Part shown: positions 1,507-38,156 of the stretch, in pieces | Position numbering within the stretch: the stretch's first letter is position 1 | Layout: the number at the start of each line of letters is the position of its first letter | NCBI GenBank assembly: GCA_045656065.1 | Contig: JAZOQL010000013.1 | Span: 1-38,156, forward strand | Reading direction: 5' to 3' | DNA: 38,156 nucleotides | DNA from: Rikenellaceae bacterium | GTDB lineage: Bacteria; Bacteroidota; Bacteroidia; Bacteroidales; Rikenellaceae | Program-made: the position numbers and the translations under genes | Notes under the pieces: generated by a model | Seen by the model: only the letters and a program-made list of their open reading frames with translations | Databases searched by the model: none | Told to the model about the DNA's origin: nothing

Positions 1507-1813
1507 TTTCCTCGCCCTCCATACCGACTATCGAGTCTTCGTTAGATATTCCGTCGTTATCAGGGGTTTCCTCGATATGACCTACGGTTATTGAACCGAC
1601 CTTGGTGTTGATTTTGACCTTCTTGTTGTCGTCAAGGGCTTTGGCTCCGAACGCCAATGCTGGGTAGCAGAACATTATTGCGACGCCCTGGAGTACGCTC
1701 GGATGGATTTCACCCTGAGGTGGAAGCAAGAACGATGTTATCAATAAACCGAGGCTGATGAAGAGCGTTACGAAGAACGCTACGAAGTAGTGATTACGAA
1801 TGCAGTTTTTCAT
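1499..1813 (-). CDS. Holin candidate (two transmembrane helices, acidic C-terminal tail)
   Basis: Transmembrane helices YFVAFFVTLFISLGLLITSFLL and VLQGVAIMFCYPALAFGA, followed by a charged tail. Lies immediately upstream of, and overlapping, the endolysin gene. Confidence 0.55.
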   Translation of the reverse strand: MKNCIRNHYFVAFFVTLFISLGLLITSFLLPPQGEIHPSVLQGVAIMFCYPALAFGAKALDDNKKVKINTKVGSITVGHIEETPDNDGISNEDSIVGMEGEENE

Positions 1814-2232
1814 TATTCCGGACAGATGATTTCTTTAGGTACCTCGATTTCAAGCGTCACATACATACCAGCACACTCATCCTTGAACTTCTCGGTGAAG
1901 CTCTGGTACTTCCTGATGCCTGTAACCTCGGCGTTATAATCAGCGCAGAACCTGTTAACGATGTTGTCCAGAACCTGTTTGGCGGTGGACTCGATTTCAA
2001 GTTCGTTGCTCTTATCGTCCAGGAGTCTATCCACATAGAACAAATTGAACCCATAAACATCAAACAAATCATTGCTTCTGTGTGTGGTTTGTACCACATA
2101 GAACACAGCGTACCTCACACTTGGGTTTCCGTTCAAATCATCATACAGGTGGTTCTCACCGACTGTACGGACATTCGGCTGGTCGAGGGCGATATTTTGA
2201 AGGGTCTTTACGACCGAGTATAGCGTAGCCAT
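1813..2232 (-). CDS. Hypothetical protein, co-transcribed with the lysis cassette; possible virion neck/tail accessory
   Basis: The ORF runs to 2301, but the ATG at 2232 (MATLYSVVKTL...) lies 15 nt downstream of a TATATTTAT box (2248..2256). The stop overlaps the holin ATG (TAATG). Confidence 0.5.
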   Translation of the reverse strand: MATLYSVVKTLQNIALDQPNVRTVGENHLYDDLNGNPSVRYAVFYVVQTTHRSNDLFDVYGFNLFYVDRLLDDKSNELEIESTAKQVLDNIVNRFCADYNAEVTGIRKYQSFTEKFKDECAGMYVTLEIEVPKEIICPE

Positions 2233-2317
2233 TGTTATTCCTTTGGAATAAATATAGTTTTCACACCCATCGGCTTTGTCACTTTTCGAAATTTTTGACA
2301 TTTTTTTTTAAGAAACC

Positions 2318-2349
2318 CTTGCTTATTAAGATTTCCGAACATATCTTTG
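2318..2349 (+). promoter_or_regulatory. Candidate Bacteroidota-type promoter (CTTG-N19-TATCTTTG) for the plus-strand gene 2473..3054
   Basis: TATCTTTG at 2342..2349 matches TAnnTTTG. A TTG-containing -33-like element lies 19 nt upstream. Confidence 0.3.
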
Positions 2350-2472
2350 GTTAGAGTTCGAAACGAACCAAGTAGCGAGACGGCTTTACAATCGCCAAAA
2401 GTTCGGGCGCCAGTAAGTGACTCGACAATAGAAACACTGACCGCACCAACGAAGCATACTAACCGAGACACT

Positions 2473-3054
2473 ATGCCAAGAACCGAAAAACAGAGAGAAA
2501 CAGCTAAAAGGTACCGGGAGGCACTGCGAGAAATCAAGCTTGCCGAAGGTAAAATGAGAAACATTGAATCCAGGGTTGTTTTGAAAGGTTACGGTTTCAG
2601 GGTAGTAGTCAGTACTTTTAACAAATACGACGTCGATACAGTCAATCTTGATGGGACGATAAACTGTGAGGGGGGTGATTATAACGGAAGTGTATTGAGG
2701 TCGGTTGACTTGGAATTGAGGCGGCTAATCAGGGAATGGGTTAACAAACATTCGGACCATTGGTTCAATCGGTACATTGCCATAGTTGACGCACTTGACA
2801 ATTACAACAAGGAACGCAGATACAACTACATCAAGTACGTACCCAAGAACAAGCACATCAAAATCGACATAACCCTGAAACAAAAAAACAACTTGCCCTG
2901 GAAGGAAGTTGTCTCAGTAGTTTCGGAAGACCTCCGGGACCTGTATGATGGAATCGTCGAAACGATAGAAAGCAATGGTTTAGCCCTGAAGAACTTCAAG
3001 GGCTACAACTCGAAAGATTATGGAACCCAGAAGACCTGTTGCTCAGTAACTTAA
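2473..3054 (+). CDS. Hypothetical protein; lone plus-strand gene inside the minus-strand late region (moron-like)
   Basis: First ATG is MPRTEKQRETAKRYREAL...; the track start at 2347 is TTG and sits inside the putative promoter. Its stop overlaps the convergent gene's stop (TTAA at 3051..3054). Confidence 0.5.
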   Translation: MPRTEKQRETAKRYREALREIKLAEGKMRNIESRVVLKGYGFRVVVSTFNKYDVDTVNLDGTINCEGGDYNGSVLRSVDLELRRLIREWVNKHSDHWFNRYIAIVDALDNYNKERRYNYIKYVPKNKHIKIDITLKQKNNLPWKEVVSVVSEDLRDLYDGIVETIESNGLALKNFKGYNSKDYGTQKTCCSVT

Positions 3055-15072: not shown

Positions 15073-18000
15073 TTACCAGGTTGTCTCATTTGTACGTTTC
15101 GTAGCCAGTTCCTGACTTGCCGTCACATCCGATTCTACTACGAAGGCTCTAAGAGGTTTCTCGTCAAGACTGTTGCGTAGGTAATCGGTATCGTCCTTAC
15201 CTGTCACATTGGTCACATACTGTGGCTGGTAATCGGAAAGTGAAGGCATCGCATTGACGTATGAGTCAGCACCGGAACCAGTATTGTCCTTGGTGGTGGC
15301 GAGAATAAGCTTCACATTTGCCATACCAGCGGCGAGTGCGGCGGCAGCAGCAGCGATACCAAGTGCCGGACCGACATAAGGGATTGAAGCAAGTGAGTTG
15401 TAAGCACCAACGGCACTACCGAGAGCGTCCATCGTTGCAGCAGCAGCCTTGATACCCCTGTACTCGTCAAGCTGTTTCTCGGCTTCCTCATTGGTCATCT
15501 TGCCTTCCGCAACCTTTACCTGCATCGTCTTTTCAACGGCGGTATAAACATCGTCGAAGATGCCACTGAGTCCCTGGAAACCCTGCTGGAGGTAACCCGA
15601 AATCTCATCGAAAGCAGCCTTCGCATTATCAACCCTCATCTGGTCAATCTGCAACTGGTATTCAAGCGTACCGAGTGCAAGTTCCTTCTGGGCGTCCGCA
15701 AGTGCGGCTTCCATTTCGAGCCTTTCCTGACCGACGAGTTTGCCACTATCAAGCACCTTCTGCATCTGTTCAATCTGAGCCTTGGCACTTTCCTCGTAGA
15801 TTTTCTTTTCATCTTCGAGACCTTGAAGTTCAGCTTTGTTACGTTCCACACCCCAGACGCTGGTGCTACCCATAGCACCCCAGACCCTTTCGCCCTTGAC
15901 GTTTGCATCATTACCGAGAAGCATAGCGTATCCGGTATTCACACTGTTCATTCGTTTGCGGGCGTCCTCCCAACGCTGAATCTGTGCGATTGCAGCATCG
16001 GCTTCCTCCTTTGCATACTTTGATGTGATTTTCAGGCGTTCCTGGGCGTAGTGTTCCTCAAGGTTGGTAGTTTCAATACCCTTGCGTTCGTACTCCTTGA
16101 TTTCCTTGTCCATTGTGTCCTGAAGGTTGGCAAGTTCAACTTCCATCATCGCCTTGTTGTATTCGTTTATGGTCTTTGAAGTTGCCAAATCAAGTGCCTT
16201 GCGTTCAAGCAGTGCGTTCTTGTACTTATCGACGTACTTGTCAAGGATGTCCTGCTTACGCTTGGTGTACTCAGCCTCCAGTCCGGTCGTATCCTCACCA
16301 GCGTTCTTGTAGATTTCCACCTGAACGGTATGCCACTCTTCGAGTTTGTCCAGTTCAACCTGGAGTTCAGTCTTAAGTGAATCAAGGTACTGTTTTTGGA
16401 GTTTGGTATGGTACTCATTGAAATCGTTGAGGTACTTCTGCTTGTTTACCTGTGCCTCTCTGAGAGCCTTTTCGTCATTCTTGTAATGCTCGATGTACTC
16501 GTCATACATCTTGTTGTAATACTTGAGACCTTCGGCACTGTACTTCCAGATTGAAGCGAAGTCGAGTTCCTCGTATTCACCCTGGAATTTCTGCAAAGTC
16601 GCCTCGAATTCCTTGATGTAGAGTTCCCACTTACTGAACCAGTTGTCACCCTTACCGGAACCACCGTTCTTACCAAACAGCAACTCGCTCGGATTGAACT
16701 CTTCGAGGAACTTGTTAAGCCACTGCTCAAAGTCGTTCTGAACACCCTTAAGGTTTTCCTCGGCTCTCTTGATGGAACCCTGCAAAGCATCGTCCATAGC
16801 CTTCTGGGTTTGTTCAGGCGTAGGCATACTACCGACACCGATGGTAGGTGAGTAAACGGTACCCATAGTCTGCTGGAAACTACCGAGTGCGTCAATCTTT
16901 CCGTTCCTTGCCTCGGCGACCTTATCCATTGCATCGATTACGTCCTTGTACTTCTCGGTAATCTTGGATGTCATAGCCTCAGCTTGTGCCTGTTTGATGA
17001 GAGCCTTTGTAACCTCGTCAATGGACTGTGCGAACTCACCGTTCTTTACCTTTGCTATATTGGTTGCGGTCGTAGCACTGCCCATCGTTTTCAGCACTTC
17101 CTTCGCAGCAATGGTACGTTCCTTATCTGACTTGGAAGCCATCGTAGCCCACTTGCTGTATATCTGAAGGTCTACAAGCTGTTTTGCGGCGTTCCTATGT
17201 CCCTCCTGCATTGCCTGGTTCCACTCCTTCTGGAACCTTGCAGCCTGCTTTGCTTCCTTGTTGAAAATGTTAAGGTTTCTCGCCCACTTGATAATGTCCT
17301 TACCGAAGATTGCAAGCACCATAATCACAGCAAGTATTAAAGTCTGCCAGGACAAAAGCGTCTTGATTAGACCCTTCAATGCACCTCCGGCGGTCTGCAT
17401 CTTACGCTGTTCCTCGACTACTTTCTCAGCAGCAGCAAGTTTGTTTTCAGCATTGGTGAGACCGATTTCAGCAGCCGTAAGTTCAGCGGTTGCAGCAGCA
17501 AGGTCGATGGTAAGCTGTGAGTTCTGTGCCTTGAGTTTGTTAAGGGTTTCAAGGTTTATGATAAGTTCCTGGTCTGTGCCGTTAAGGTTAACCTTTGAAG
17601 CAACCTCAGCCATCAATGCCTGGACCCTTGCCTGTGTCAGAGCAAGGTCGTTCTTCTTAGCCTGAGCAGCCGCCAAGGTCGCCCTTGCCTGTTCGAGTTC
17701 TGCCTTGGCACTGTCCCTAACAGCCTCGGCTTCCGCAAGGTGTGAACCAGCGGACTGCAACACCGCAGTAGTTTCAGCCTGGTGCGCTTCCATTGACTCG
17801 GCTGCTTCACCAGCTTCTGCTCGGTGTGCGGTAGCATCCTGAGAAGCCGCAACACTTGCAGCATCCCCTGCTTCCTTGAGTGACCTATAAGCGTTGACTA
17901 TGCTTGGAATTTGCTGAGCCAACTGCATAAAGAACTGCTCAGGACCATTCTCAAGTGAAGGTATCGTCTTCGCCAGGCTGATGAAAGACCTTGACATAGA

Positions 18001-18423
18001 ATCAGCCGCACTGTTGATGGCTCCCTCGTAATTTCCGACATTCCTTTGGAAATTTCCGATGGATGCATCCATACCCTTGAGCTCGTTGTTGATTGCCTTG
18101 ATTGAAGGTGCAAGGTCAAGTCTCTGGGCTTCATCAGAGGTCTGCTTATATGTTTTGTTGAGGTCCTTGAGGATGTCGTTAAGCTGACGATAACTGACGT
18201 TCGATGCATCGATGACGTTATCGTTCTTCTGCATAACCTTCACCAACGCCATTTCCTGGTCAGCCAATTGCTTGGTCAACTCAGCGGTTTTTTCCTTGTC
18301 GTTCTTATACTCCTTAAGCTCTTCCCTGGTCCTTGTAATCTGGTTCACCAGTTCCTCGAATGCAGCCTGGAGTTGTGAGGCATCACCAGTAAATACGACT
18401 TTTTCTTCAATCTGTTCTGCCAT
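15073..18423 (-). CDS. Tape measure protein
   Basis: 1116 aa with long coiled-coil Ala/Glu/Lys-rich stretches. Internal hydrophobic segment LLSWQTLILAVIMVLAIFG. C-terminal Gly/Ala-rich hydrophobic region GPALGIAAAAAALAAGMANV. Confidence 0.75.
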   Translation of the reverse strand: MAEQIEEKVVFTGDASQLQAAFEELVNQITRTREELKEYKNDKEKTAELTKQLADQEMALVKVMQKNDNVIDASNVSYRQLNDILKDLNKTYKQTSDEAQRLDLAPSIKAINNELKGMDASIGNFQRNVGNYEGAINSAADSMSRSFISLAKTIPSLENGPEQFFMQLAQQIPSIVNAYRSLKEAGDAASVAASQDATAHRAEAGEAAESMEAHQAETTAVLQSAGSHLAEAEAVRDSAKAELEQARATLAAAQAKKNDLALTQARVQALMAEVASKVNLNGTDQELIINLETLNKLKAQNSQLTIDLAAATAELTAAEIGLTNAENKLAAAEKVVEEQRKMQTAGGALKGLIKTLLSWQTLILAVIMVLAIFGKDIIKWARNLNIFNKEAKQAARFQKEWNQAMQEGHRNAAKQLVDLQIYSKWATMASKSDKERTIAAKEVLKTMGSATTATNIAKVKNGEFAQSIDEVTKALIKQAQAEAMTSKITEKYKDVIDAMDKVAEARNGKIDALGSFQQTMGTVYSPTIGVGSMPTPEQTQKAMDDALQGSIKRAEENLKGVQNDFEQWLNKFLEEFNPSELLFGKNGGSGKGDNWFSKWELYIKEFEATLQKFQGEYEELDFASIWKYSAEGLKYYNKMYDEYIEHYKNDEKALREAQVNKQKYLNDFNEYHTKLQKQYLDSLKTELQVELDKLEEWHTVQVEIYKNAGEDTTGLEAEYTKRKQDILDKYVDKYKNALLERKALDLATSKTINEYNKAMMEVELANLQDTMDKEIKEYERKGIETTNLEEHYAQERLKITSKYAKEEADAAIAQIQRWEDARKRMNSVNTGYAMLLGNDANVKGERVWGAMGSTSVWGVERNKAELQGLEDEKKIYEESAKAQIEQMQKVLDSGKLVGQERLEMEAALADAQKELALGTLEYQLQIDQMRVDNAKAAFDEISGYLQQGFQGLSGIFDDVYTAVEKTMQVKVAEGKMTNEEAEKQLDEYRGIKAAAATMDALGSAVGAYNSLASIPYVGPALGIAAAAAALAAGMANVKLILATTKDNTGSGADSYVNAMPSLSDYQPQYVTNVTGKDDTDYLRNSLDEKPLRAFVVESDVTASQELATKRTNETTW

Positions 18424-18534: not shown

Positions 18535-21500
18535 TTATCCTTCCTGATATATTCCGATGGTTCCGGAAACACCATTCTTTTCCATTTCCAAGTGTCCACT
18601 CCTGCCTTCACCACTTGTATTCGGGTCGCAGACTATGGTTCCACTCCAGACATTGTTCCCAAGATGGACGAAATTGTCCAAGGTGTGCCATTGCCCGTCG
18701 AAAGGTTCATCGTAATCGAATACCCAGTTTGCACCAGCATCGGCTCCTATGACTGTAACAGTGAACGCCGAACTTCCACCACTTGCCGGGAAGTACATAG
18801 TTCCAGGGTTAGGAACAACCAACGAACCCTCAGGTCCCAACTGTATGAAGTTGAACATCTGTCTATCGTCGTAGTCGCCAACAAGAACGACTGTGAACGT
18901 CCTCCAATCTGAGTCTGTGTCGGTATTCGTCAGAGCCGTAGCGGTAAAGGTCGTCTGTCCACTCGGATTGTGACCCATCCAGTAATTGTCTGAGAATTCA
19001 ATCCAGTCATAACCCGGACCGTTGCCACCCCAACCCTGGGTAGAGTTAACGGTGAACGTAACGACACCACCGGAAGCTGGAATCGGGTCTGGTGACATAA
19101 CACAGGTGGTCGTAGGTGTTTCACTCGTAGGGACCACAGGGTCAACATAGCTGGTGTAGTCAGTGATTGCCTGGACCTTCACAAATTCAACCCTCGTAAG
19201 GTCATTGGAACATACGTTCCAGTCGATGATGCGGTTAATTCTCCATAGGGAATCACCGAACCAATAGAACTGTCTCAGCAACCTTTCACCCTGTGTCTTT
19301 GGAAGCCTTACGTAGGTTTCGAGAATCCTTGTATTTACGTCATAGAGGTCATTGACGTAGCTTGACCAGAACCTGTCATAGATGTTCGCATTTTCGTTGT
19401 AATACACAAACGGTGTGTACAGTTCCTTGGTTTTACCGAAATCCCAGGCGTTGATGATGTATGAGCCGTTCTCGGTGTAGGTGTAACGACCGAATGAAGG
19501 CAGAGCACCGATTACGTCACATATCTGCTGACCGGACTTATTCCAGATAGTATTCGACCATAACCAGCAAGGATTGCTGTTGAAGGTCATCATTTCCGGC
19601 AGGTCATCAGAAAGGGTGTAATACACATAGTTGCCACTTGCGTCGTATGTTCCGACACTTCCATTGTAGAATACGAACACACCACTTCCATCGATAGGGT
19701 CCTTCTTGACATCCCTGAACTGAACCTTCGGGAATACGTCGTACATATCGCCATACTGACCGAGCGCAATGTCAGAGAAGTTGAGAGAACTACCAACATC
19801 AACAGAGTAGCTGTCTTCACCGTTACGAAGGCTGTACTTCACCCAGTTGAACAGAGGGGTAGGGTAGTTATCCTGACCATTGACAACCCTGTTGTAGAAG
19901 TAAGGTGACTTCTCAAGACCCTCGGCAGCATTGTTATACACAATACCTTCAAGAAGGTCCTCGGTCTCACTATCGAAATTATACCCGGTGTTGACCTTCT
20001 GTGCGCCGTAATCATTACCCCATTTGTTATAGTACTTGGTTTCGAACATACCCTTGTCGTTCTGGGTGTAGTTGAAACTGTACCATTTGTGCTTGAAGGT
20101 AAGCGGAGTTATCTTGGTGTCCCTTGCCATATCAATGCGGTCGGACCAATCCTGTATCGGGTTTGAATTGTAATACTTACCCCTCGTAAGGATTTCAACC
20201 CTCTTCCTAAGCGGGTCCTTACGCAGATACAGTCCGAACGTCTTAAGATAACCGAGCAAATAGTCGCAAGGCGTACCATCAACGTTGAGCAACACCTGTT
20301 TTGTGACCTTTGCACCGGAGTTAATTTTGGTACCACCACCATAATATGCCTGACCAGTCATAACTGGCTTTATCCAACTTGAATCCTTTGTGTTTGCGGT
20401 ATAGTTGGACTCCGTTATCGAGGTTGACGCATAAAGCTTGCCCAACCTTGAACCGTAGGTATTGACCCACTCACCCCTGTACGTCTGCACCTGGGTAAGG
20501 TTCGCCATCATCGTAGCATACAGTTTCACAGTGGCAACCTTGCTGTTGTTGGTGTTCATCTTCAAAGTGATGTCCTCAGCCCACTGATAGGTTCCTGCAC
20601 TTACCTTTGAAAAGTAACCGAGCCTGTTCTGGATGCTTGCATTCGCATATCCCGGCTGATACAACGTCTGGGTAAGGTTGAGGTATGAACCGTTAACCTC
20701 GGAAGTGAGGTTGTAGATGTCACTACCACAAACAACGTTACCCTGGGCGTCGAAACCTACCAACTGGTAAACGTATGAACCATAGTCAACCCTTGAATTG
20801 CTACCGGACACATACGCAGATGTGTAGAGTGTGTTCACCGTCGCAGGGTCCCTCGGATAAGAGTAATCCCTTGCAGTGAGCATAGGTCTGAACGTAACCT
20901 CCAATGCGGTGGTTCCCTGACCCCTTGCGGAGTCTTCCCTCAAAGTGTAGATGGTGTTCGCCTGACCGTTAAGGGTCATAGTACTGGAGATTGATACCGA
21001 CCAAGGCTGTGTGGTCTCGTCCTCGTACTCCATATCAGTGAGCAACGGCAAAGTCACCCAGGCGTCCTCATAGTAGGTATTCCCGACATTAAAGAAATCC
21101 GGGTCGAGAGAAACATCATAACCACCATTCTGCGTCGGGTCACAGCAAGCATTTATAAGCTTCTTGACCCTCAGCACTGGTCTCTGAAGGTATGAACGAA
21201 GGTCCCTTATTTCCCACTCGTTCATTTTCCCGTTAATTTCACCAAAGCCGTAGCCGTTGATGGTTGAATATGTCTTGCCACTTGCGGTTACCGACGTAGG
21301 GAAACCCTGAACGACGTTCGTATTGCTTCCTTCCCTCACCCTTACATCATCAGTGAACCCTGTGGTGTTGATTAGCACCCTGTCCGCATCAATGGAATCC
21401 GGGTAACCATTATAGCAAGGTGCGAAGTTAATTACACCCCATTTCGGATTGGAGCTTTCAGTATGCTCCGAAAGTGTGAGCCAGGCGGCTTTGACTGTCT

Positions 21501-21993
21501 GCCAGGTGATGTTGAAGTCAAGCTCGGTCTCAGGATTGCCACTCGTACCGCCAGTCACAAGGTAGTTAAGGTCACAAAGCCTGAGTTCCTCACCAGTATC
21601 GGAATAAGTGAGCGAATATAGGAAATCGCCGACACCGCCATACAATGTTACGTTGTATGTAACAGTATTGTTTTTCCTGTTGACAGCATCAAGCTTGACG
21701 TATCCGGTCTCATAGAGGTCTCCATCAACGAACAGTTTGAAATCAGTTCGCTTGGAAGGATTGAAGTAACCCTCGATTTCACCGTTTGTCGCCTGGGTAC
21801 GGGTAAGGTCCCAAATATCATTGAATATCTGGTTGTTCCTTGGTGTGCCCTCAACCTGTACGGTCTTGGTGTATGAGTTTTTCACTGCGGTCGGGTTCTG
21901 GATGGAGTCCATATCGAACTGGTACAGAATCGAAGGCTCCTTGCTGAACTCAAGTTCCTCACCGCCAATGAAGAGTCTTACTTTCTGGTGCAT
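18535..21993 (-). CDS. Large tail-tip / baseplate (Tal-like) structural protein with two C-terminal BACON-like domains
   Basis: ATG at 21993 (MHQKVRLFIGGEELEF...) is preceded by AGGAGATAAT and lies 1 nt after the upstream stop. The C-terminus has ...PIPASGGVVTFTVNSTQGW... and ...MYFPASGGSSAFTVTVIGADAGANW... . Confidence 0.5.
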   Translation of the reverse strand: MHQKVRLFIGGEELEFSKEPSILYQFDMDSIQNPTAVKNSYTKTVQVEGTPRNNQIFNDIWDLTRTQATNGEIEGYFNPSKRTDFKLFVDGDLYETGYVKLDAVNRKNNTVTYNVTLYGGVGDFLYSLTYSDTGEELRLCDLNYLVTGGTSGNPETELDFNITWQTVKAAWLTLSEHTESSNPKWGVINFAPCYNGYPDSIDADRVLINTTGFTDDVRVREGSNTNVVQGFPTSVTASGKTYSTINGYGFGEINGKMNEWEIRDLRSYLQRPVLRVKKLINACCDPTQNGGYDVSLDPDFFNVGNTYYEDAWVTLPLLTDMEYEDETTQPWSVSISSTMTLNGQANTIYTLREDSARGQGTTALEVTFRPMLTARDYSYPRDPATVNTLYTSAYVSGSNSRVDYGSYVYQLVGFDAQGNVVCGSDIYNLTSEVNGSYLNLTQTLYQPGYANASIQNRLGYFSKVSAGTYQWAEDITLKMNTNNSKVATVKLYATMMANLTQVQTYRGEWVNTYGSRLGKLYASTSITESNYTANTKDSSWIKPVMTGQAYYGGGTKINSGAKVTKQVLLNVDGTPCDYLLGYLKTFGLYLRKDPLRKRVEILTRGKYYNSNPIQDWSDRIDMARDTKITPLTFKHKWYSFNYTQNDKGMFETKYYNKWGNDYGAQKVNTGYNFDSETEDLLEGIVYNNAAEGLEKSPYFYNRVVNGQDNYPTPLFNWVKYSLRNGEDSYSVDVGSSLNFSDIALGQYGDMYDVFPKVQFRDVKKDPIDGSGVFVFYNGSVGTYDASGNYVYYTLSDDLPEMMTFNSNPCWLWSNTIWNKSGQQICDVIGALPSFGRYTYTENGSYIINAWDFGKTKELYTPFVYYNENANIYDRFWSSYVNDLYDVNTRILETYVRLPKTQGERLLRQFYWFGDSLWRINRIIDWNVCSNDLTRVEFVKVQAITDYTSYVDPVVPTSETPTTTCVMSPDPIPASGGVVTFTVNSTQGWGGNGPGYDWIEFSDNYWMGHNPSGQTTFTATALTNTDTDSDWRTFTVVLVGDYDDRQMFNFIQLGPEGSLVVPNPGTMYFPASGGSSAFTVTVIGADAGANWVFDYDEPFDGQWHTLDNFVHLGNNVWSGTIVCDPNTSGEGRSGHLEMEKNGVSGTIGIYQEG

Positions 21994-21994
21994 A

Positions 21995-22522
21995 TTATCT
22001 CCTGATTCTGGTTTGTGATTCTTCGACCGAAACAGTGTACTGAACAAACCTGCGATTGTTCGTAGCAAACGTCTTATACTCTGCCACACTGTTCGTAATA
22101 AAGGCTGGTCTGATTTCATCTGTAATTAGGTTGTGTAGGTATAATTTTGTCGTTGGCAGGAGGTCCGATGCCAACCTCTCGGCTTCCTCGTCAGACAGCC
22201 ACCCGGTATTCAGTTGGTACGTCGGTGAAATCTCGACCATATATCGGTTGTTCTCGAAATTGATGGTCTGGTTGCTCACCGTCCTGTTGTACCTATGGTC
22301 CGTAAGGTTGTCGGTACGCTTGCACTTGCCTTCGAACAGGAACGAATTCCAACCACCGTATTTGTTGACATAGTAAACGGCATAGTCACCACAATAACTA
22401 CAGTCGTATGTGACCGAGTTATTGATGGTGATTTTTGCGTTGCTTGCACCGAGGTCCGAACAGTCCCTGACCCAGGTTGAAACTCCGGCTGGAAACGTTT
22501 TGGTATTTGATATAACTGCCAT
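21995..22522 (-). CDS. Distal-tail/baseplate protein candidate
   Basis: 175 aa, coupled to the large tail-tip gene. Pattern YYVNKYGGWNSFLFEG...TGWLSDEEAERLASDLLPTTKLYLHN. The assignment rests mainly on position. Confidence 0.3.
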   Translation of the reverse strand: MAVISNTKTFPAGVSTWVRDCSDLGASNAKITINNSVTYDCSYCGDYAVYYVNKYGGWNSFLFEGKCKRTDNLTDHRYNRTVSNQTINFENNRYMVEISPTYQLNTGWLSDEEAERLASDLLPTTKLYLHNLITDEIRPAFITNSVAEYKTFATNNRRFVQYTVSVEESQTRIRR

Positions 22523-22548: not shown

Positions 22549-24978
22549 TTACGCATCACCGACCGCACTCCAATTGAAGTATCCGAGGTAGTAACGGTCC
22601 TCGCTCATCCAGGAACTATAGTCAGCCCCGGCAGGGTAATGCAGTGTTCCACCTTGCGGTATCAACTGGAACGAATACTGAAGCACCGTTGGCGCCGTAG
22701 TGCCAAGTGCGGTTATCGACATTAGCGAATCACAGCTACAGAACACACCCTCTTCGAGTTTGGTGATGTTAGCCGGAATGGTTATCGAAGGCAGTGATTC
22801 ACACCTGTAGAACAAGCTGTCGCCGAGAACCGTCATACCCCTACCAATGGTAACCGCAGTCAAGTTGTGCATATCTGTGAACGCAAAGTCGGAAACATCC
22901 GTAACACTGTCCGGTATAATCAACTCAGGTACCGCACTGTAACTCAGTATATTGTTTCCTATATGTACAAGACCCTCGTTGAGCGTCAGTGAGGTCAAGC
23001 TTTCAGTGTATTGCAATGCGTTCGCTGAAATGTACCTTAGTGAAGGTGGAGCGACGAAAGTCCTGATGCCCGTATTTGCAAACATATCCATACCGAGGCT
23101 TTCGCACATAGAAGGCTGTGCAAATGTCACCGCAGTAAGGTTGGTACATCCGCTGAATACATTCGGGTAGGCTCCGGTTACGTTCTGTGCGATTTCAACT
23201 TTCCTCAGATATTGGTTGTTCATCCACATCTGCCAACCGATGCTTCCTGTTTCTCCACTGACCTGGAACTTGACGATATGCTCACCAGCTTCCGAGAAGT
23301 TGTAGTACTTGGAAAGTGGAACGTCAACGCCATCAACCCTCATAGTCTGTTTGAGCGTTTGAGTTCCGGTACGCCCGGTTTGAGCCATAGTTGACATTAC
23401 GAGGTTATTTCCAGACTGAGGGAAGTCGAACGTACACACAATCCAGAAGTTCGAAGGGTCGTTGTCTTCCTGGTATAGAGGCACCTGTATTGAATGGTCT
23501 GAGTTGTAAACGACAAGAGTGTCAGTCTTTGACGTTGAATATGGGTTGAAACCACAGGTAACGCTGATGGTTGTGGTACCGCTGCCACCACTATTCTGAC
23601 TTACAGTAAACCAACCTGATGTGTTGCCACTGATTTGCCAGCCGTAGTTACTGGTAATGGTGAGCGTCTTGGTACCACCTTCGTTGGTCCAGTTGAGTGA
23701 AGAAGGAACGACCGTAAGGGTTTTTTCCATATTCTTCTGAGAAACTACCGCAGTAGCGGTTGAACTGTCGCTACCGATGACCACAATCCTTCCAGTCTTT
23801 TCATTGAAAGTCTGGTTTGGCTGCGTAGTGCCAGTAAATGTGAACGTTCCAGCACCGCCGGAAGTTGAACCATTGATGGTAATCCATTCAGGATAGGAAT
23901 CAAGCCTCCAAGATACGTTTGAAGTAACAGTGAAAACCTGTGAGCCGCCAGTATAAGAGAATACGTAAGTCGTAGGAGCAATGGTGATGCTCGACTCGAA
24001 CGCATCCTGGGTAACAGTCACAGGAACACTCTCGGAACCAGCAGCAAATACGACGACGCCGTTTCTGGTTTCGGTCCTCAAATTACCCTGGGCAACAAGG
24101 TCAACAGTCGCATTTCCGTTTCCTGATGATATAGGTGCGACAATCCAATCAGGCTTGCTCTGTATGTACCAGTTACCGTTCGTAACAACAGACACCTGCT
24201 TAATCTCGCCATCGGCAATATAGTGCAGGCTCAAAGGAGAAACCGCAAGGTTGATGTGGTATCCCTGGGTTACTGGAATGGTCAAAGTTCTGTCACCGTA
24301 ACTTATTACGATGGACCCGTCCCTTCCGGTTCCGGCTGGGTTCTCGGTGGCGGTAAAAACGACCTCGGTGTTCGACACAGCGGAATAACTTCCACTACCT
24401 GTCAGGGTAGAAGCACTCAACCAATCTGGCATTGAAATAATGGTCCAGGATGTATTTGTTGAAATTGACATTGTTCGAGAACCTCCGGTCCAGTCATAAC
24501 TCAACGAACTTGGGAATGTGTTGACAAACAAATCGTACTCGATGTCATAGTTGAAGGTTGTGGAACCAGTGTTGTATATGGTGAACATCGACCGCATCCT
24601 CGAATCAATGTGACCGTTGATTGGCTCTGTCATCATATACCTCGTCTGACCAGTCCACCTGTCCTCGTATGACCAGTCGTAGATGAAATTGTACGTCTCA
24701 AGTAGCTCGGTGCCAGGCAACTGCCTGATTTGGTAATTCTTGCTGGCTTCACTGTTCTTGACAACATCATCGAACGCACCCCTTATGTCGGTATCGAAAT
24801 CAGGAGTGACATATTCCTCGACAATGTTGTTGACATTGATTGTGATGCCAGTCTGGTCAGGCATACGCATAGTGTAGCCGTTATGAACGGTGTTTCCACT
24901 TTCATCGGCTATCACATAATCAAGTGTATCTGCGTTGCTCTTGAACGTAATATCTTTCCAAATTGGTGAGTATATCAT
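22549..24978 (-). CDS. Virion surface protein: IWKD/TEPINGH N-domain, four BACON domains, BspA-type leucine-rich repeats (LRR_5-like)
   Basis: Four units of the type ...GGS..(V/L)(T/S)(V/I).SN..W......W(L/I)......G.G......R.G.I.V......VTQ. LRR region: VFSGCTNLTAVTF...PPSLRYISANALQYTESLTSLTL...IPDSVTDVSDFAFTDMHNLTAVTI...FYRCESLPSITIPANITKLEEGVFCSCDSL. Confidence 0.65.
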   Translation of the reverse strand: MIYSPIWKDITFKSNADTLDYVIADESGNTVHNGYTMRMPDQTGITINVNNIVEEYVTPDFDTDIRGAFDDVVKNSEASKNYQIRQLPGTELLETYNFIYDWSYEDRWTGQTRYMMTEPINGHIDSRMRSMFTIYNTGSTTFNYDIEYDLFVNTFPSSLSYDWTGGSRTMSISTNTSWTIISMPDWLSASTLTGSGSYSAVSNTEVVFTATENPAGTGRDGSIVISYGDRTLTIPVTQGYHINLAVSPLSLHYIADGEIKQVSVVTNGNWYIQSKPDWIVAPISSGNGNATVDLVAQGNLRTETRNGVVVFAAGSESVPVTVTQDAFESSITIAPTTYVFSYTGGSQVFTVTSNVSWRLDSYPEWITINGSTSGGAGTFTFTGTTQPNQTFNEKTGRIVVIGSDSSTATAVVSQKNMEKTLTVVPSSLNWTNEGGTKTLTITSNYGWQISGNTSGWFTVSQNSGGSGTTTISVTCGFNPYSTSKTDTLVVYNSDHSIQVPLYQEDNDPSNFWIVCTFDFPQSGNNLVMSTMAQTGRTGTQTLKQTMRVDGVDVPLSKYYNFSEAGEHIVKFQVSGETGSIGWQMWMNNQYLRKVEIAQNVTGAYPNVFSGCTNLTAVTFAQPSMCESLGMDMFANTGIRTFVAPPSLRYISANALQYTESLTSLTLNEGLVHIGNNILSYSAVPELIIPDSVTDVSDFAFTDMHNLTAVTIGRGMTVLGDSLFYRCESLPSITIPANITKLEEGVFCSCDSLMSITALGTTAPTVLQYSFQLIPQGGTLHYPAGADYSSWMSEDRYYLGYFNWSAVGDA

Positions 24979-26698: not shown

Positions 26699-27334
26699 TT
26701 ATAGGACCATTATGTCCGTAATCGTCTTGTCGGTCCAAACACCGTCACCCTTGGTGAGATTGACACCTGACCACAGTTCACCTACAACGGTGTGGAAGTC
26801 ACTGCTTACGTCCTTCGCCAGAGCCTCGGCAATCATCTTCCTGAAAGCATCCATCGTTTCCTTAACGCTGTCCCTGAGGATTGGTTTTGGTTCAATGCCA
26901 TTCTTCGCAATGTTCGTAGCAATAGCCCAGGCAAGACCGGAAGTCTGCTTGCTGACGTCCAACGCTCCGAGGTTCGGGGTCAGGGACGCATAGTTCGGAA
27001 CGCCCCTCTGGGTGTCACTTGGAATTATGTGCTTCCACTCAATCCACTTCTCGATAGCCTCAATCGGTGGAAGGTGACCCTTGTATTCGCTGCCGTATGC
27101 CTTGCGACCTGACTCGACGAATTTCCAGTAACTCATAAGGTTGATTGAAACCTTCATTCGTCCGTTGCCGTCAATGTCAGCCGTATGGATTGTGACGCTC
27201 TTGAACAGTTCCCTGGAAGCAAGAGCATCATACTTTTCAAGTCCGTCCTTGTAAGCCTCACATACAGCCTGGGCAAACTCCATAAGGACCGCCCTGGTGT
27301 TCTCGTACTTTAATACCTGTGTGCCATCTGCCAT
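26699..27334 (-). CDS. Hypothetical virion-module protein (possibly HK97 gp10-like neck/tail completion)
   Basis: 211 aa. SYWKFVESGRKAYG...LPPIEAIEKWIEWK gives only a weak resemblance. Confidence 0.3.
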   Translation of the reverse strand: MADGTQVLKYENTRAVLMEFAQAVCEAYKDGLEKYDALASRELFKSVTIHTADIDGNGRMKVSINLMSYWKFVESGRKAYGSEYKGHLPPIEAIEKWIEWKHIIPSDTQRGVPNYASLTPNLGALDVSKQTSGLAWAIATNIAKNGIEPKPILRDSVKETMDAFRKMIAEALAKDVSSDFHTVVGELWSGVNLTKGDGVWTDKTITDIMVL

Positions 27335-28097
27335 TTGTTCAAATCCTCCTGTTCTCTACGACTTTTTTCCTTTATGTAATCGACAATGTTGAAGAACTCA
27401 ATCACACCCATTTCCCACACATCGTCCCAGGTCACCCGTTTTGTATGTGCGACTTCATCAATCTGCCTAAGCCAATTATACCTTCGATGTTTTTCATCAA
27501 ACTCATCCTCGTTTCCTTCAGCTTTATCTTCCTCACCGGGTCCTTTTCCCTTATCTCCATCATCGTCGTCCCCCAGACCAAACGTATCAGACCTTTCAGA
27601 TACGAATTCTTTGAACGCTTGGCAAAAAAAAAGCAGGCGTTCTCGGCAACCTCGACAGGCATCTTCTCCCGGAATACCTCGGCAACCTCCAGGGCATCGT
27701 ACCCGTCGTTGTACTTGTGACCCTCAGGAAGAATGAAACAAGCCAGTACGTTGCAGTAATTCTTTTCGTAATCCTTGTAGAACGTCTGGAAGTCGATGTA
27801 CTGAGCCGTTGTGATGTCCTTGAAGTCGGTATGCACCACATACTTCACACCATCCAATGTGATGTACTTGTTCCTTAACCTGTCCTTCACATCAGGCTTC
27901 TTCAATATGAACGCACCATCAGCCAACAAACGCCTCACCTCACCAACCGGGGAGTTGAGAAGCTCGTCAGGGGTGCAGTCACACAACACAGCCAGGATTT
28001 CAATGTCACTGTTTTCAACCTCGTCCCTGATTATTTCCTTGATTTTCTCGTACTTACCAACAGGTAACGTACCCCAACTCTTGTATTTCAGTTCCAT
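27310..28097 (-). CDS. Alternative 262-aa product made by a -1 shift (or a 1-nt homopolymer length difference) at the T9 run
   Basis: The -1 frame stays open for 104 codons after the T9 run, ending ...VTWDDVWEMGVIEFFNIVDYIKEKSRREQEDLNKWQMAHRY*. It fills the 97-nt gap 27335..27431. Confidence 0.45.
27432..28097 (-). CDS. Hypothetical protein (tail-assembly-chaperone-like?), frame-0 product
   Basis: 221-aa ORF with an ATG start, containing TGC TTT TTT TTT GCC at codons 155-159. Confidence 0.5.
   Translation of the reverse strand: MELKYKSWGTLPVGKYEKIKEIIRDEVENSDIEILAVLCDCTPDELLNSPVGEVRRLLADGAFILKKPDVKDRLRNKYITLDGVKYVVHTDFKDITTAQYIDFQTFYKDYEKNYCNVLACFILPEGHKYNDGYDALEVAEVFREKMPVEVAENACFFFAKRSKNSYLKGLIRLVWGTTMMEIREKDPVRKIKLKETRMSLMKNIEGIIGLGRLMKSHIQNG
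27624..27632 (-). other. Slippery homopolymer (U9 on the mRNA; A9 on the plus strand)
   Basis: Counted directly: ggcAAAAAAAAAgcagg. Confidence 0.9.
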
Positions 28098-28158: not shown

Positions 28159-29439
28159 TCATCTTGAAAAGCCTATGCAGTACTGTCCGGTTGTCTGGTT
28201 GGTGTAGTAGGCGTTGTAGGCAAGCATCGACGACATAACGATGTCGTCGTGAGTGCCGTAGGCGCCGTTGTAGGTAACCACCTGGGTTTTCGGATTGTAC
28301 TCGGCTTCGTATGCGGTGAACTGTGACACCAATGCCTTGTTATTAAATAATTTTATTTTACCTTGTTCCAGGGCGACCTGCATCTGTTGTACGAGTTCGC
28401 TCTTGGATTTATTTGTTGTGACCCACCTGTTAATCTTGCCGGACACAACGTTGAGCCGTTTATCGTTCAGTCCCTTGATGATGAGGTCAATCAGTGGTGA
28501 GCCGATGCTGTTGTTCTCGGCATTGATGCTGGCAATCCTGACACCGAACTTCTCAATGTCCCCCACAATCCTTTCAACCTGCTGGAAGGTTGTCAGGTCA
28601 TTCCAGAAATCCAGGAACACCATTTCACCGTTCTCGTTAACCGCAGAAATTGCGGTATAGTCACCGCCGTTCCCGGCTCCGAAATCAATGCCCAGATAAA
28701 CCCTGTTGAATGGTACAGGCGCCTCGTCAATCAGGTTCTCGTTAACGAAGCTGAACACCATACCGTCATCGTCCAACCACTCACCGAGGATTTCTGACTT
28801 GAACTGGTTTGCGGTAAGAATCCTCCGGTACTGTTCGACCATTTCATCGCTGATGAGGCAACTGGTATCCCAATCGTTCCAGTCGATTGATACGACCCTT
28901 CCGTTCCCGTCAAGACCTTCCTTGTAATAGTTGTAGAACACTCCGTCCCTAATCTTCGGCGTTGATACCAGGAGCATAGGGGCATTGGAAACCTGTCGCC
29001 AGGGAAGGACCAGTTCAAGTAGCTCAGGTGAAAGGAACGCAGCCTCATCGAGGATAAGCACACCCGTTACAGTGTAACCTCGAAGACCGTCCCGGATTTC
29101 AGCACTCTTGAAAAAAATCGTCGAGCCGTTGATGAACTCGATTTCAAGCAGGGTCTCGTTCTTTTTCTTGATGACACCGGAAGCATACACAGCATCGACC
29201 AGTTCCTTGTATATCTTTCGAGCCTGAGCCATCGTCGGGCTTATCAGGGCGTTCTTGGTCTTTGCGTAGTTCAGTGCGTAATGCAGGAGGATGCCCTGAC
29301 ACACATAGGACTTACCCCTCTGGCGGGGAGCCTTGACACAACATACAATTCCACTGTTGAGTCTGTTGCATACTGTATTAACAACGGCTTTCTGCCAGGG
29401 GTACAACTTCGGACCTATGTATGTCTTACCCTTCGCCAC
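28159..29439 (-). CDS. terL: Terminase large subunit
   Basis: Walker A-like KAPRQRGKS, Walker B LILDEAA, and nuclease-domain motifs YLGIDFGAGNGGD and GTHDD. The GTG start overlaps the upstream stop (TAGTG). Confidence 0.85.
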   Translation of the reverse strand: MAKGKTYIGPKLYPWQKAVVNTVCNRLNSGIVCCVKAPRQRGKSYVCQGILLHYALNYAKTKNALISPTMAQARKIYKELVDAVYASGVIKKKNETLLEIEFINGSTIFFKSAEIRDGLRGYTVTGVLILDEAAFLSPELLELVLPWRQVSNAPMLLVSTPKIRDGVFYNYYKEGLDGNGRVVSIDWNDWDTSCLISDEMVEQYRRILTANQFKSEILGEWLDDDGMVFSFVNENLIDEAPVPFNRVYLGIDFGAGNGGDYTAISAVNENGEMVFLDFWNDLTTFQQVERIVGDIEKFGVRIASINAENNSIGSPLIDLIIKGLNDKRLNVVSGKINRWVTTNKSKSELVQQMQVALEQGKIKLFNNKALVSQFTAYEAEYNPKTQVVTYNGAYGTHDDIVMSSMLAYNAYYTNQTTGQYCIGFSR

Positions 29440-37774: not shown

Positions 37775-38156
37775 TTATTGGTTTTCACTGAACAATTGAT
37801 AGAGCTTCACCTCGTTGAAAGTGTGGTACGAAGTGAGGTAGTCACCGTAAGGTCTGTTCTCCCAGGTAAGGCATTCCTCGGCTTTGAGCCATTTCCTGAG
37901 TTCCGAGAACTTCTCGCTTTCAATTCCGGTGCGGCTCAGTGCCATACTCTGGGTGTAAATCATTTCCGTCCTTGAGTAACCCTTGCGGTTCCACCATAGG
38001 TCGAGCATATCCTTGAGCGTCTTGATTTCCTGGGCGTCGAGCAAGGTGGTGTTCGTAATCAACGCAAGCAGTTCGTCCTTCTTGGAGTCGGGAATGGATG
38101 TGTCGTTGTCCGGCTTTCCGTCGAGGATGGGCTGAATGTGGTTGGAAAAATAGATG
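37775..38156 (-). CDS. Hypothetical protein, 3' part of the junction-spanning gene (180 aa in total)
   Basis: The frame is open from the right window edge (…IYFSNHIQPILDGKPDNDTSIPDSKKDELLALITNTT…) down to the stop at 37775. The track ORF (TTG at 38062) covers only the last 95 codons. Confidence 0.6.
   Translation of the reverse strand, partial: IYFSNHIQPILDGKPDNDTSIPDSKKDELLALITNTTLLDAQEIKTLKDMLDLWWNRKGYSRTEMIYTQSMALSRTGIESEKFSELRKWLKAEECLTWENRPYGDYLTSYHTFNEVKLYQLFSENQ
38146..38156. repeat. Terminal direct repeat AAAAATAGATG, copy 2
   Basis: Identical to 1..11. Confidence 0.9.

Follow-up and report, generated by a model that had tools for sequence, protein, structure and literature searches.

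Does the gene that directly follows the large terminase gene in a phage of gut Bacteroidales make one protein or two? The question is raised by a stretch of 38,156 nucleotides (nt), contig JAZOQL010000013.1 of the assembly GCA_045656065.1 assigned to a Rikenellaceae bacterium, which was analysed at its full length and is called the window below. On its minus strand, an open reading frame (ORF) of 221 amino acids (aa; 28097..27432) contains the sequence GAG AAC GCC TGC TTT TTT TTT GCC AAG. Its nine T's (T9, or U9 in the mRNA; 27632..27624) form one of only three homopolymers of at least eight bases in the window; they lie in phase 0, encode the three Phe residues F156-F158 and present the zero-frame heptamer U_UUU_UUU. 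Beyond the run, frame 0 has 63 further codons, while the -1 frame, entered past the third TTT, is open for 104 codons (27310..27624) and closes with a TAA at 27312..27310. This extension covers a 97-nt gap (27335..27431) and overlaps the next ORF, starting at 27334, by 25 nt. An earlier note on the same DNA had described this arrangement and offered programmed recoding or a homopolymer indel as its cause; the coordinates, the position of the run, the frames, the 104-codon peptide, the gap and the overlap were all reproduced, and the 63 further codons of frame 0 were confirmed from the sequence.

The site is, with high probability, a conserved programmed recoding site through which one gene gives rise to two products of 221 and 262 aa with residues 1-158 in common. 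Standard decoding would yield the 221-aa product, in which the shared N-terminal alpha/beta domain is followed by a frame-0-specific basic helical hairpin (residues 159-221). Decoding one base back at U9 would yield the 262-aa product, conceptually joined from residues 1-158 and the -1 tail, in which the hairpin gives way to a short helix that leads through a disordered acidic linker into a small conserved helical domain (WL.QIDEVAHTKRVTWDDVWEMGVIEFFNIVDYIKEK...). The predicted peptide across the -1 junction is ...ENACFFF-CQAFKEF... / ...ENACFFFCQAFKEF.... The stretch 27432..27623, comprising the 63 frame-0 codons and their stop, would thus be read in both frames.

The evidence for this conclusion comes from relatives of the gene. 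A set of 80 related phage contigs, 28-38% identical at the protein level, was combined with the window to give 81 sequences; statistics on codon phase and frame length refer to the 74 of these that were analysed first. Exactly nine T's occupy the homologous position in 71 of the 81 sequences (88%), the remainder being one T8, seven T7 and two runs of T6 followed by C, and no sequence has ten T's or more. The T9 run lies in phase 0 in 11 of the 74 sequences, in phase 1 in 14 and in phase 2 in 42, so that the tree requires the phase to have changed independently at least four times; in the subclade of the window itself the phase shifts from 0 to 2. All five nearer relatives (49-82% identity), obtained from five samples with different assemblers, also carry T9. 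Beyond the run, the -1 frame of the 74 sequences stays open for 90-118 codons (median 99, with TGA counted as Trp in one clade) and frame 0 for 29-84 codons (median 52), while the +1 frame closes within 0-19 codons. It is this comparison, and not the length of the ORF alone, that places the openness of the -1 frame beyond chance. The alignment of homologous phages that the earlier note had suggested thus finds both the U-run and the two frames conserved. The effect of one added base can be seen in the relative P0040 (a 3.6-kb Logan contig), which carries T10 and a contiguous fused ORF of 263 aa, whereas in the near twin P0101, seen with T9 in two samples, the short form is encoded. Comparison of the pair indicates that one additional T is enough to give the long protein and that T10 is exceptional; it was found once in about 200 sequences examined and in none of the 81 loci.

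A search with the joined 262-aa sequence detected 118 homologues, all of which except P0040 are about 205-230 aa long. In these short forms only the first 60-67% of the query is aligned, that is, up to the run, where all of them keep FF(F/L). A profile built from 46 members and searched against cluster representatives at 50% identity found 4259 representatives at E<=1e-3, 890 of them at E<=1e-30. Among the best 150 of the 4259, nearly all have the short-form length of 200-250 aa, and FF occurs at the expected distance in 119 of the 119 representatives bearing the upstream Q(Y/F)IDFQ motif. The long product has therefore been overlooked by gene callers in essentially every member. A literature search found the family undescribed in the searchable literature, and recognition of the site corrects the annotation of a major unnamed protein family of phages of gut, rumen and marine Bacteroidota.

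Both tails are conserved as protein, as judged from alignments and substitution patterns. The 37 aligned -1 tails share a domain with the consensus (I/V)N.GY.NLF, a variable-length acidic linker and WGW...VD.VSET.R.SWD.V....EFLN.L.YRKDK...EK..IE.WKRTH, and the tail encoded in the window fits this pattern. In the clade comprising L001 and L004-L017 the apparent early stops are TGA codons placed exactly in Trp columns (KWNW and IE.WK) of tails that are otherwise of full length, which in terms of sequence is a protein-level signature in the -1 frame. These contigs come from the IMG/VR metagenome 3300045988; their long ORFs lengthen markedly when TGA is taken as a sense codon, and in one example (L004:6453-6800) the -1 tail ends with TAA. 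The phages of this clade appear to read TGA as Trp, in the manner of genetic code 4. The frame-0 tails also align across relatives, that of the window ending in IQNG and many others in NGDG-like sequences.

Pairwise codon-position differences between the window and three near relatives, given for frame-0 positions 1/2/3, are 0.23/0.14/0.45 in the single-coding N-terminal part. Where only the -1 frame is read, they amount to 0.175/0.455/0.233, with the peak at the third position of that frame, and in the overlap they are flat (0.28/0.32/0.26). This pattern fits what purifying selection on both frames predicts. The AlphaFold model of the frame-0 protein has a predicted local distance difference test score (pLDDT) of 91.2 and a predicted template modelling score (pTM) of 0.79, with the hairpin formed by helices 148-183 and 187-220. 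In the model of the -1 tail, built apart from the other half, residues 39-102 exceed a pLDDT of 90, while the linker falls below 50.

Three explanations would dispense with recoding. Nine-base homopolymers are commonly miscalled by one base, and the genome might truly contain T10 within an ordinary 262-aa ORF, as P0040 does. However, T9 recurs in 71 of the 81 divergent sequences and in the five near relatives assembled independently, as well as in two cultured phages with finished genomes, P12024S and P12024L; over 29-84 codons the frame-0 tail shows protein-level conservation of its own, and the short form is encoded by all but one of the 118 homologues. An error is accordingly so improbable that it may be considered effectively refuted. 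The -1 ORF might instead be an independent small gene with its own start, since a 41-aa GTG ORF is listed in that frame (27435..27310) and since the distal part of its counterpart in P12024S is annotated as a separate gene of 55 aa. Yet the conservation of the -1 peptide begins right after the run with the motif (I/V)N.GY.NLF, where there is no conserved start codon, and the frame opens exactly at the conserved run in every lineage; a separate gene is thus most improbable. Homopolymer tracts are classic contingency loci, and a T9 tract that expanded and contracted during phage replication could produce the long form from T10 subpopulations, of which P0040 might represent one. This too is very unlikely: T10 is as rare as stated above, genomes with T10 would lose the conserved frame-0 product, a poor fit with selection on both tails, and lineages with short runs (T6C and T7) cannot phase-vary efficiently, yet keep both frames. 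Of the two causes proposed in the earlier note, recoding is therefore supported by the conservation of the run, of both frames and of both tails in independent assemblies, and the indel falls away. On the sequence comparisons, the site is conserved and unannotated, and the T9 is not a sequencing error.

From the same comparative data we infer that slippage does occur, the ratio of its products and the machine responsible for it. RNA-polymerase slippage was not considered in the earlier note, but the exact-T9 pattern makes it a serious candidate. Transcriptional slippage would keep a T run at about nine bases whatever its codon phase, which is what is seen in 71 of the 81 sequences, with runs in phases 0, 1 and 2. 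Programmed transcriptional slippage, known from mxiE and Thermus dnaX, classically takes place on runs of this length (PMC5009743). A run that slides by one base through substitution must pass through T8 or T10, both of which hold a valid heptamer, and among the 81 sequences T8 was seen once and T10 never. In 32 sequences RNAalifold predicted no base pairs downstream of the run, and in the window local folding is insignificant (z-scores of -0.3 and 0.0) and the scan found no terminator-like site. The conservation of nine bases regardless of phase, together with the lack of conserved RNA structure, points to RNA-polymerase slippage. A hairpin upstream of the run was considered as a stimulator of slippage and rejected; it is strong in some GC-rich clades and absent from AT-rich ones, and so is not a feature of the family.

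Slippage of RNA polymerase is thus probably, although not by a wide measure of confidence, the main route in the T9 lineages, the window included. The polymerase would add one U, and the resulting U10 transcripts would be translated into the long form. Tandem -1 slippage of tRNA-Phe on U_UUU_UUU would also contribute, and this ribosomal route would be the sole one where, in a few lineages, the run is reduced to T6C-T8.

Other observations favour the ribosome. The zero-frame pattern X_XXY_YYZ of ribosomal -1 sites is present in the window as U_UUU_UUU. The lineages with shortened runs comprise five with T7 (NNT TTT TTT), two with T6C (NNT TTT TTC) and one with T8, and all eight, which are independent, keep a U_UUU_UUY heptamer in the zero frame. 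If the phase were free, the chance of this would be about (1/3)^7 x 2/3, and the retention of the heptamer in every short run points to ribosomal -1 frameshifting. In these lineages frameshifting by the ribosome alone can suffice, and slippage in the T9 lineages could be purely ribosomal as well. In the latter case T9 would just hold the heptamer in any phase, since nine T's contain X_XXY_YYZ in every one of them, and the site would resemble that of gpE/E+E' of phage P2, annotated as a -1 translational shift at GGT TTT TTG. The lack of a stimulatory structure is no obstacle to this explanation, as phage chaperone frameshift sites often do without one, which Xu, Hendrix and Duda are said to have pointed out in 2004. 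Frameshifting of this kind with no meaningful contribution of the polymerase is possible, but somewhat doubtful. It leaves unexplained why exactly nine T's are found in 88% of sequences when seven suffice, why the two spare T's flank the heptamer on different sides in different phases, and why T8 is rare and T10 absent among the 81 sequences when both are valid heptamers. In addition, U_UUU_UUU is a comparatively poor shifter in Escherichia coli (PMC5009743).

As the evidence points both ways, our reading of the alignments is that both routes would exist within the family. A bolder proposal can be advanced only tentatively, at less than even confidence. According to it, the isoform ratio in T9 lineages would be set by RNA-polymerase slippage on exactly nine T's, and in lineages that no longer have a long run the ribosome alone would have taken over, by -1 frameshifting on U_UUU_UUY. 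Two recoding machines would then have been interchanged at a homologous site, in a family of more than 4000 clusters at 50% identity encoded beside terL, whose two-tailed protein would not be a canonical G/GT chaperone. The family offers a natural comparative system for the open question of whether the polymerase or the ribosome slips at a homopolymer, because it holds T9 in three phases together with independently derived short runs that obey the heptamer rule.

The gene belongs to a late operon on the minus strand, in which a split sigma factor, a putative small terminase and other small genes precede the large terminase subunit (TerL; 28159..29439, phrog_2 at 2e-39, Pfam Terminase_6N and Terminase_6C) and the frameshift gene. 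Next is a conserved 211-aa protein (26699..27334), the start of which is overlapped by the -1 tail, with weak tail-completion or Neck1-like matches (phrog_5 at 0.023). The operon continues with two BACON/LRR proteins, a 175-aa protein, a 1194-aa protein and a 1116-aa tape-measure-like protein (15073..18423; phrog_2854 at 4e-5, phrog_167 at 8e-4), and then with an XkdF-type protease, a coiled-coil scaffold-like protein, the capsid, two unknown proteins, the portal, a protein carrying a tail-tip domain and a further BACON protein. The frameshift gene therefore follows terL and does not stand ahead of the tape measure, as the earlier note had observed; the tape-measure-like gene lies five genes, or about 9 kb, downstream. 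The order of TerL, the frameshift gene, the 211-aa homologue, a protein with the domain of the 175-aa protein and a protein of about 1000 aa is kept in all 21 loci examined. In these loci, in the window and in P12024S the frameshift gene adjoins terL, and the tape-measure-like gene is never adjacent to it.

The structural order on the minus strand between 4149 and 29439 is unusual and common to P12024S: TerL is followed by tail-like genes up to the tape-measure-like one, then by the protease, scaffold-like and capsid genes, the portal, and the tail-tip and BACON genes. In one lineage of near relatives an HNH endonuclease gene (140 aa; L089:2613-3035 and L090:1819-2241) lies between terL and the frameshift gene and overlaps the start of the latter, and a second gene of this kind, NUMOD4/HNH_3, is found just upstream of terL (L089:715-1284). 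The ORF of the 175-aa protein (22522..21995) and the longest ORF of the 1194-aa protein (22119..18535) overlap by 125 nt (21995-22119), and the true start of the latter gene may be further downstream; in relatives the 175-aa domain sits within proteins of 320-720 aa.

The only other 9-mer of the window, at 2301-2309, is probably not a second slip site. It is A9 on the minus strand and falls where the ORFs 2564..2235 and 2301..1813 of that strand overlap in a -1 relation. The former ORF (109 aa) looks non-coding, being rich in Leu, Ser, Cys and Val and lying opposite the plus-strand ORF 2347..3054 in antisense. The ATG at 2231, beyond the run, is a better start and makes an A-rich 5' leader likelier than a slip site. 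The window corresponds to the whole of contig C13, the largest of the 328 contigs in a 1.99-Mb bin. Its ends (1-11 and 38146-38156) repeat the same 11 nt, AAAAATAGATG, in direct orientation, so the contig may represent a complete circular phage genome (about 38.1 kb) that was binned with a bacterial metagenome-assembled genome.

What the two proteins do can be considered by analogy. They could form a virion or tail assembly factor working like the G/GT chaperone pair of phage lambda, in which two isoforms in a fixed ratio share a binding module and differ in their partner-binding tails; we hold this with slightly less than even confidence. The earlier note had compared the arrangement with G/GT. 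The comparison holds for the predicted nested products, given the conserved run, -1 frame and tails, but it does not extend to the chaperone family, to which similarity is marginal. As in G/GT, the predicted products share their N-terminus by way of a conserved frameshift, in 81 sequences. Of a G/GT pair it would further be expected that the common domain binds the tape measure and the -1 domain the tube protein, with neither product present in virions. The gene is not placed between the major tail (tube) and tape measure genes, and the shift is not near the end of the short ORF, as frame 0 runs on for 63 codons (29-84 in relatives) that encode a conserved helical hairpin. Since the gene thus differs from G/GT in both of these respects, membership of the family is not claimed; the tail-chaperone label is a plausible analogy and not an established membership.

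Searches of profile and structure databases gave marginal indications. The comparison with chaperone families that the earlier note had proposed gave a marginal outcome: the cut-off of Pfam PF10109 (Phage_TAC_7) was passed by one of 20 relatives, P0057, with 25.6 bits against a cut-off of 25 over 40 N-terminal residues, while P0101 matched at E=0.035 and the protein of the window had no match at E<=1. The two products of the window matched nothing in PHROGs and Pfam except for a sub-threshold leucine zipper, and its protein had no tblastn match among GenBank phages. None of the 37 -1 tails matched PF06528, the C-terminal part of P2 GpE', at E<=1. Among relatives, three matches to phrog_166 ('tail protein') at 6e-5 and one to a chaperone PHROG at 0.02 were obtained. 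Foldseek comparison of the frame-0 model with BFVD returned 33 strong matches, all to uncharacterised proteins, and two annotated chaperones only at E of 0.04 and 0.79.

Further results leave this function weakly supported. A comparison by hhalign with P2 gpE gave a non-significant probability of 0.3, the P2 profile being shallow, with all members at least 79% identical. With P2 E+E' the probability for the -1 tail was 0.1, though RVTWDDVWEMGVIEFF was paired with HWPPSELYPMSLTELI. The -1 tail model matched only uncharacterised proteins in BFVD, and searches of the PDB by sequence and by fold found nothing significant. The gene is also not adjacent to the tape-measure-like gene. Alternatively, the pair could be linked to the terminase and act in packaging or in the head, for instance as an adaptor during the portal or terminase step, with both isoforms serving that process. 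Of all features of the locus, the position of the gene beside terL is the most constant, and it extends from phages of gut Bacteroidales to the marine Nonlabens phage P12024S; this, the constant separation from the tape-measure-like gene and the lack of any significant match to a chaperone profile or fold would suit such a role. However, the frameshift gene opens a block of genes that are tail-like rather than head-like (Neck1/tail-completion-like, BACON/LRR and tape-measure-like), one relative does exceed the Phage_TAC_7 cut-off, two annotated chaperones are among the weak fold matches, and the window has no further frameshifted pair upstream of the tape-measure-like gene. A packaging role is thus conceivable, though on the doubtful side. 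If the pair proves to be a tail chaperone, it would be a large exception to the rule placing G/GT immediately ahead of the tape measure gene.

Among known systems, the conserved -1 frameshift of tail assembly chaperone genes, exemplified by lambda gpG/gpGT (summarised in PMC5009743), is similar in that a late phage gene specifies two nested products with a common N-terminus and a C-terminal domain in the -1 frame, lacks an evident stimulatory structure in its RNA, and keeps this arrangement despite very low sequence similarity. It differs in several respects. The gene of the window comes after terL and five genes from the tape-measure-like gene, whereas G/GT is flanked by the tube and tape-measure genes. 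Because 63 codons still separate the shift from the frame-0 stop, the short form, unlike gpG, has a conserved 63-residue tail of its own. The site consists of exactly nine T's in any phase, in contrast to a phase-fixed heptamer such as G_GGA_AAG.

The pair gpE/gpE+E' of phage P2 (PF10109 and PF06528) has a similarly T-rich slip site, GGT TTT TTG, or U_UUU_UUG. The N-terminal helices of P0057 pass the PF10109 threshold, and hhalign pairs the same motifs in both halves. However, the protein of the window has no PF10109 match, the profile-profile probability does not exceed 0.3, the shared part is 158 aa long as against 84 aa in P2, and the position in the genome is different.

Outside phages, the closest parallels are mxiE of Shigella flexneri, in which nine T's lie inside the coding region and one base added to the transcript fuses the frames, and Thermus dnaX, where programmed transcriptional slippage takes place on an A9 run. 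In both, as in the family described here, it is length and not codon phase that is conserved. They are single cellular genes in which the product of the upstream ORF has little role, whereas the phage family has thousands of members, conserves both products and includes short-run members that obey the ribosomal heptamer rule.

Relatives were also found among phages of Flavobacteriia. Flavobacterium phage 11b does not carry the gene, and its terL and portal stand in the classical order. Flavobacterium phage 6H (KC959568; L084 10050-10930, minus strand) encodes a remote fold relative of 191 aa with T6 only and a -1 frame that stops at once; an ORF of about 105 codons with a similar tail pattern fills an unannotated gap of 305 nt downstream of it. 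The nearest cultured counterpart is the Nonlabens (Persicivirga) phage P12024S (JQ823122), a marine lytic-type phage of Flavobacteriia which, unlike the contigs of the comparison set, has no tblastn-detectable sequence similarity to the window; its own protein matched only P12024S and P12024L in a tblastn search of GenBank phages. Its gene _38 encodes a structural homologue of the frame-0 product (Foldseek E=1.3e-7), is 175 aa long, directly follows terL and contains an exact T9 at 23578..23586, behind which the -1 tail shows the LYPELY...KWSW pattern. P12024L shows this arrangement of terL, T9 gene and -1 frame as well. In P12024S the gene order of the structural module is the same, with shared PHROGs for the protease, the capsid and the Neck1-like gene. 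The counterpart of the latter, P12024S_42, matches phrog_5 at 4e-4, and the tape-measure-like _49 (phrog_58 at 2e-4) has the same place relative to the protease. In P12024S the two frames are annotated as two hypothetical proteins, P12024S_38 and the 55-aa P12024S_39 (L081 23136-23830), which are probably one gene with two products.

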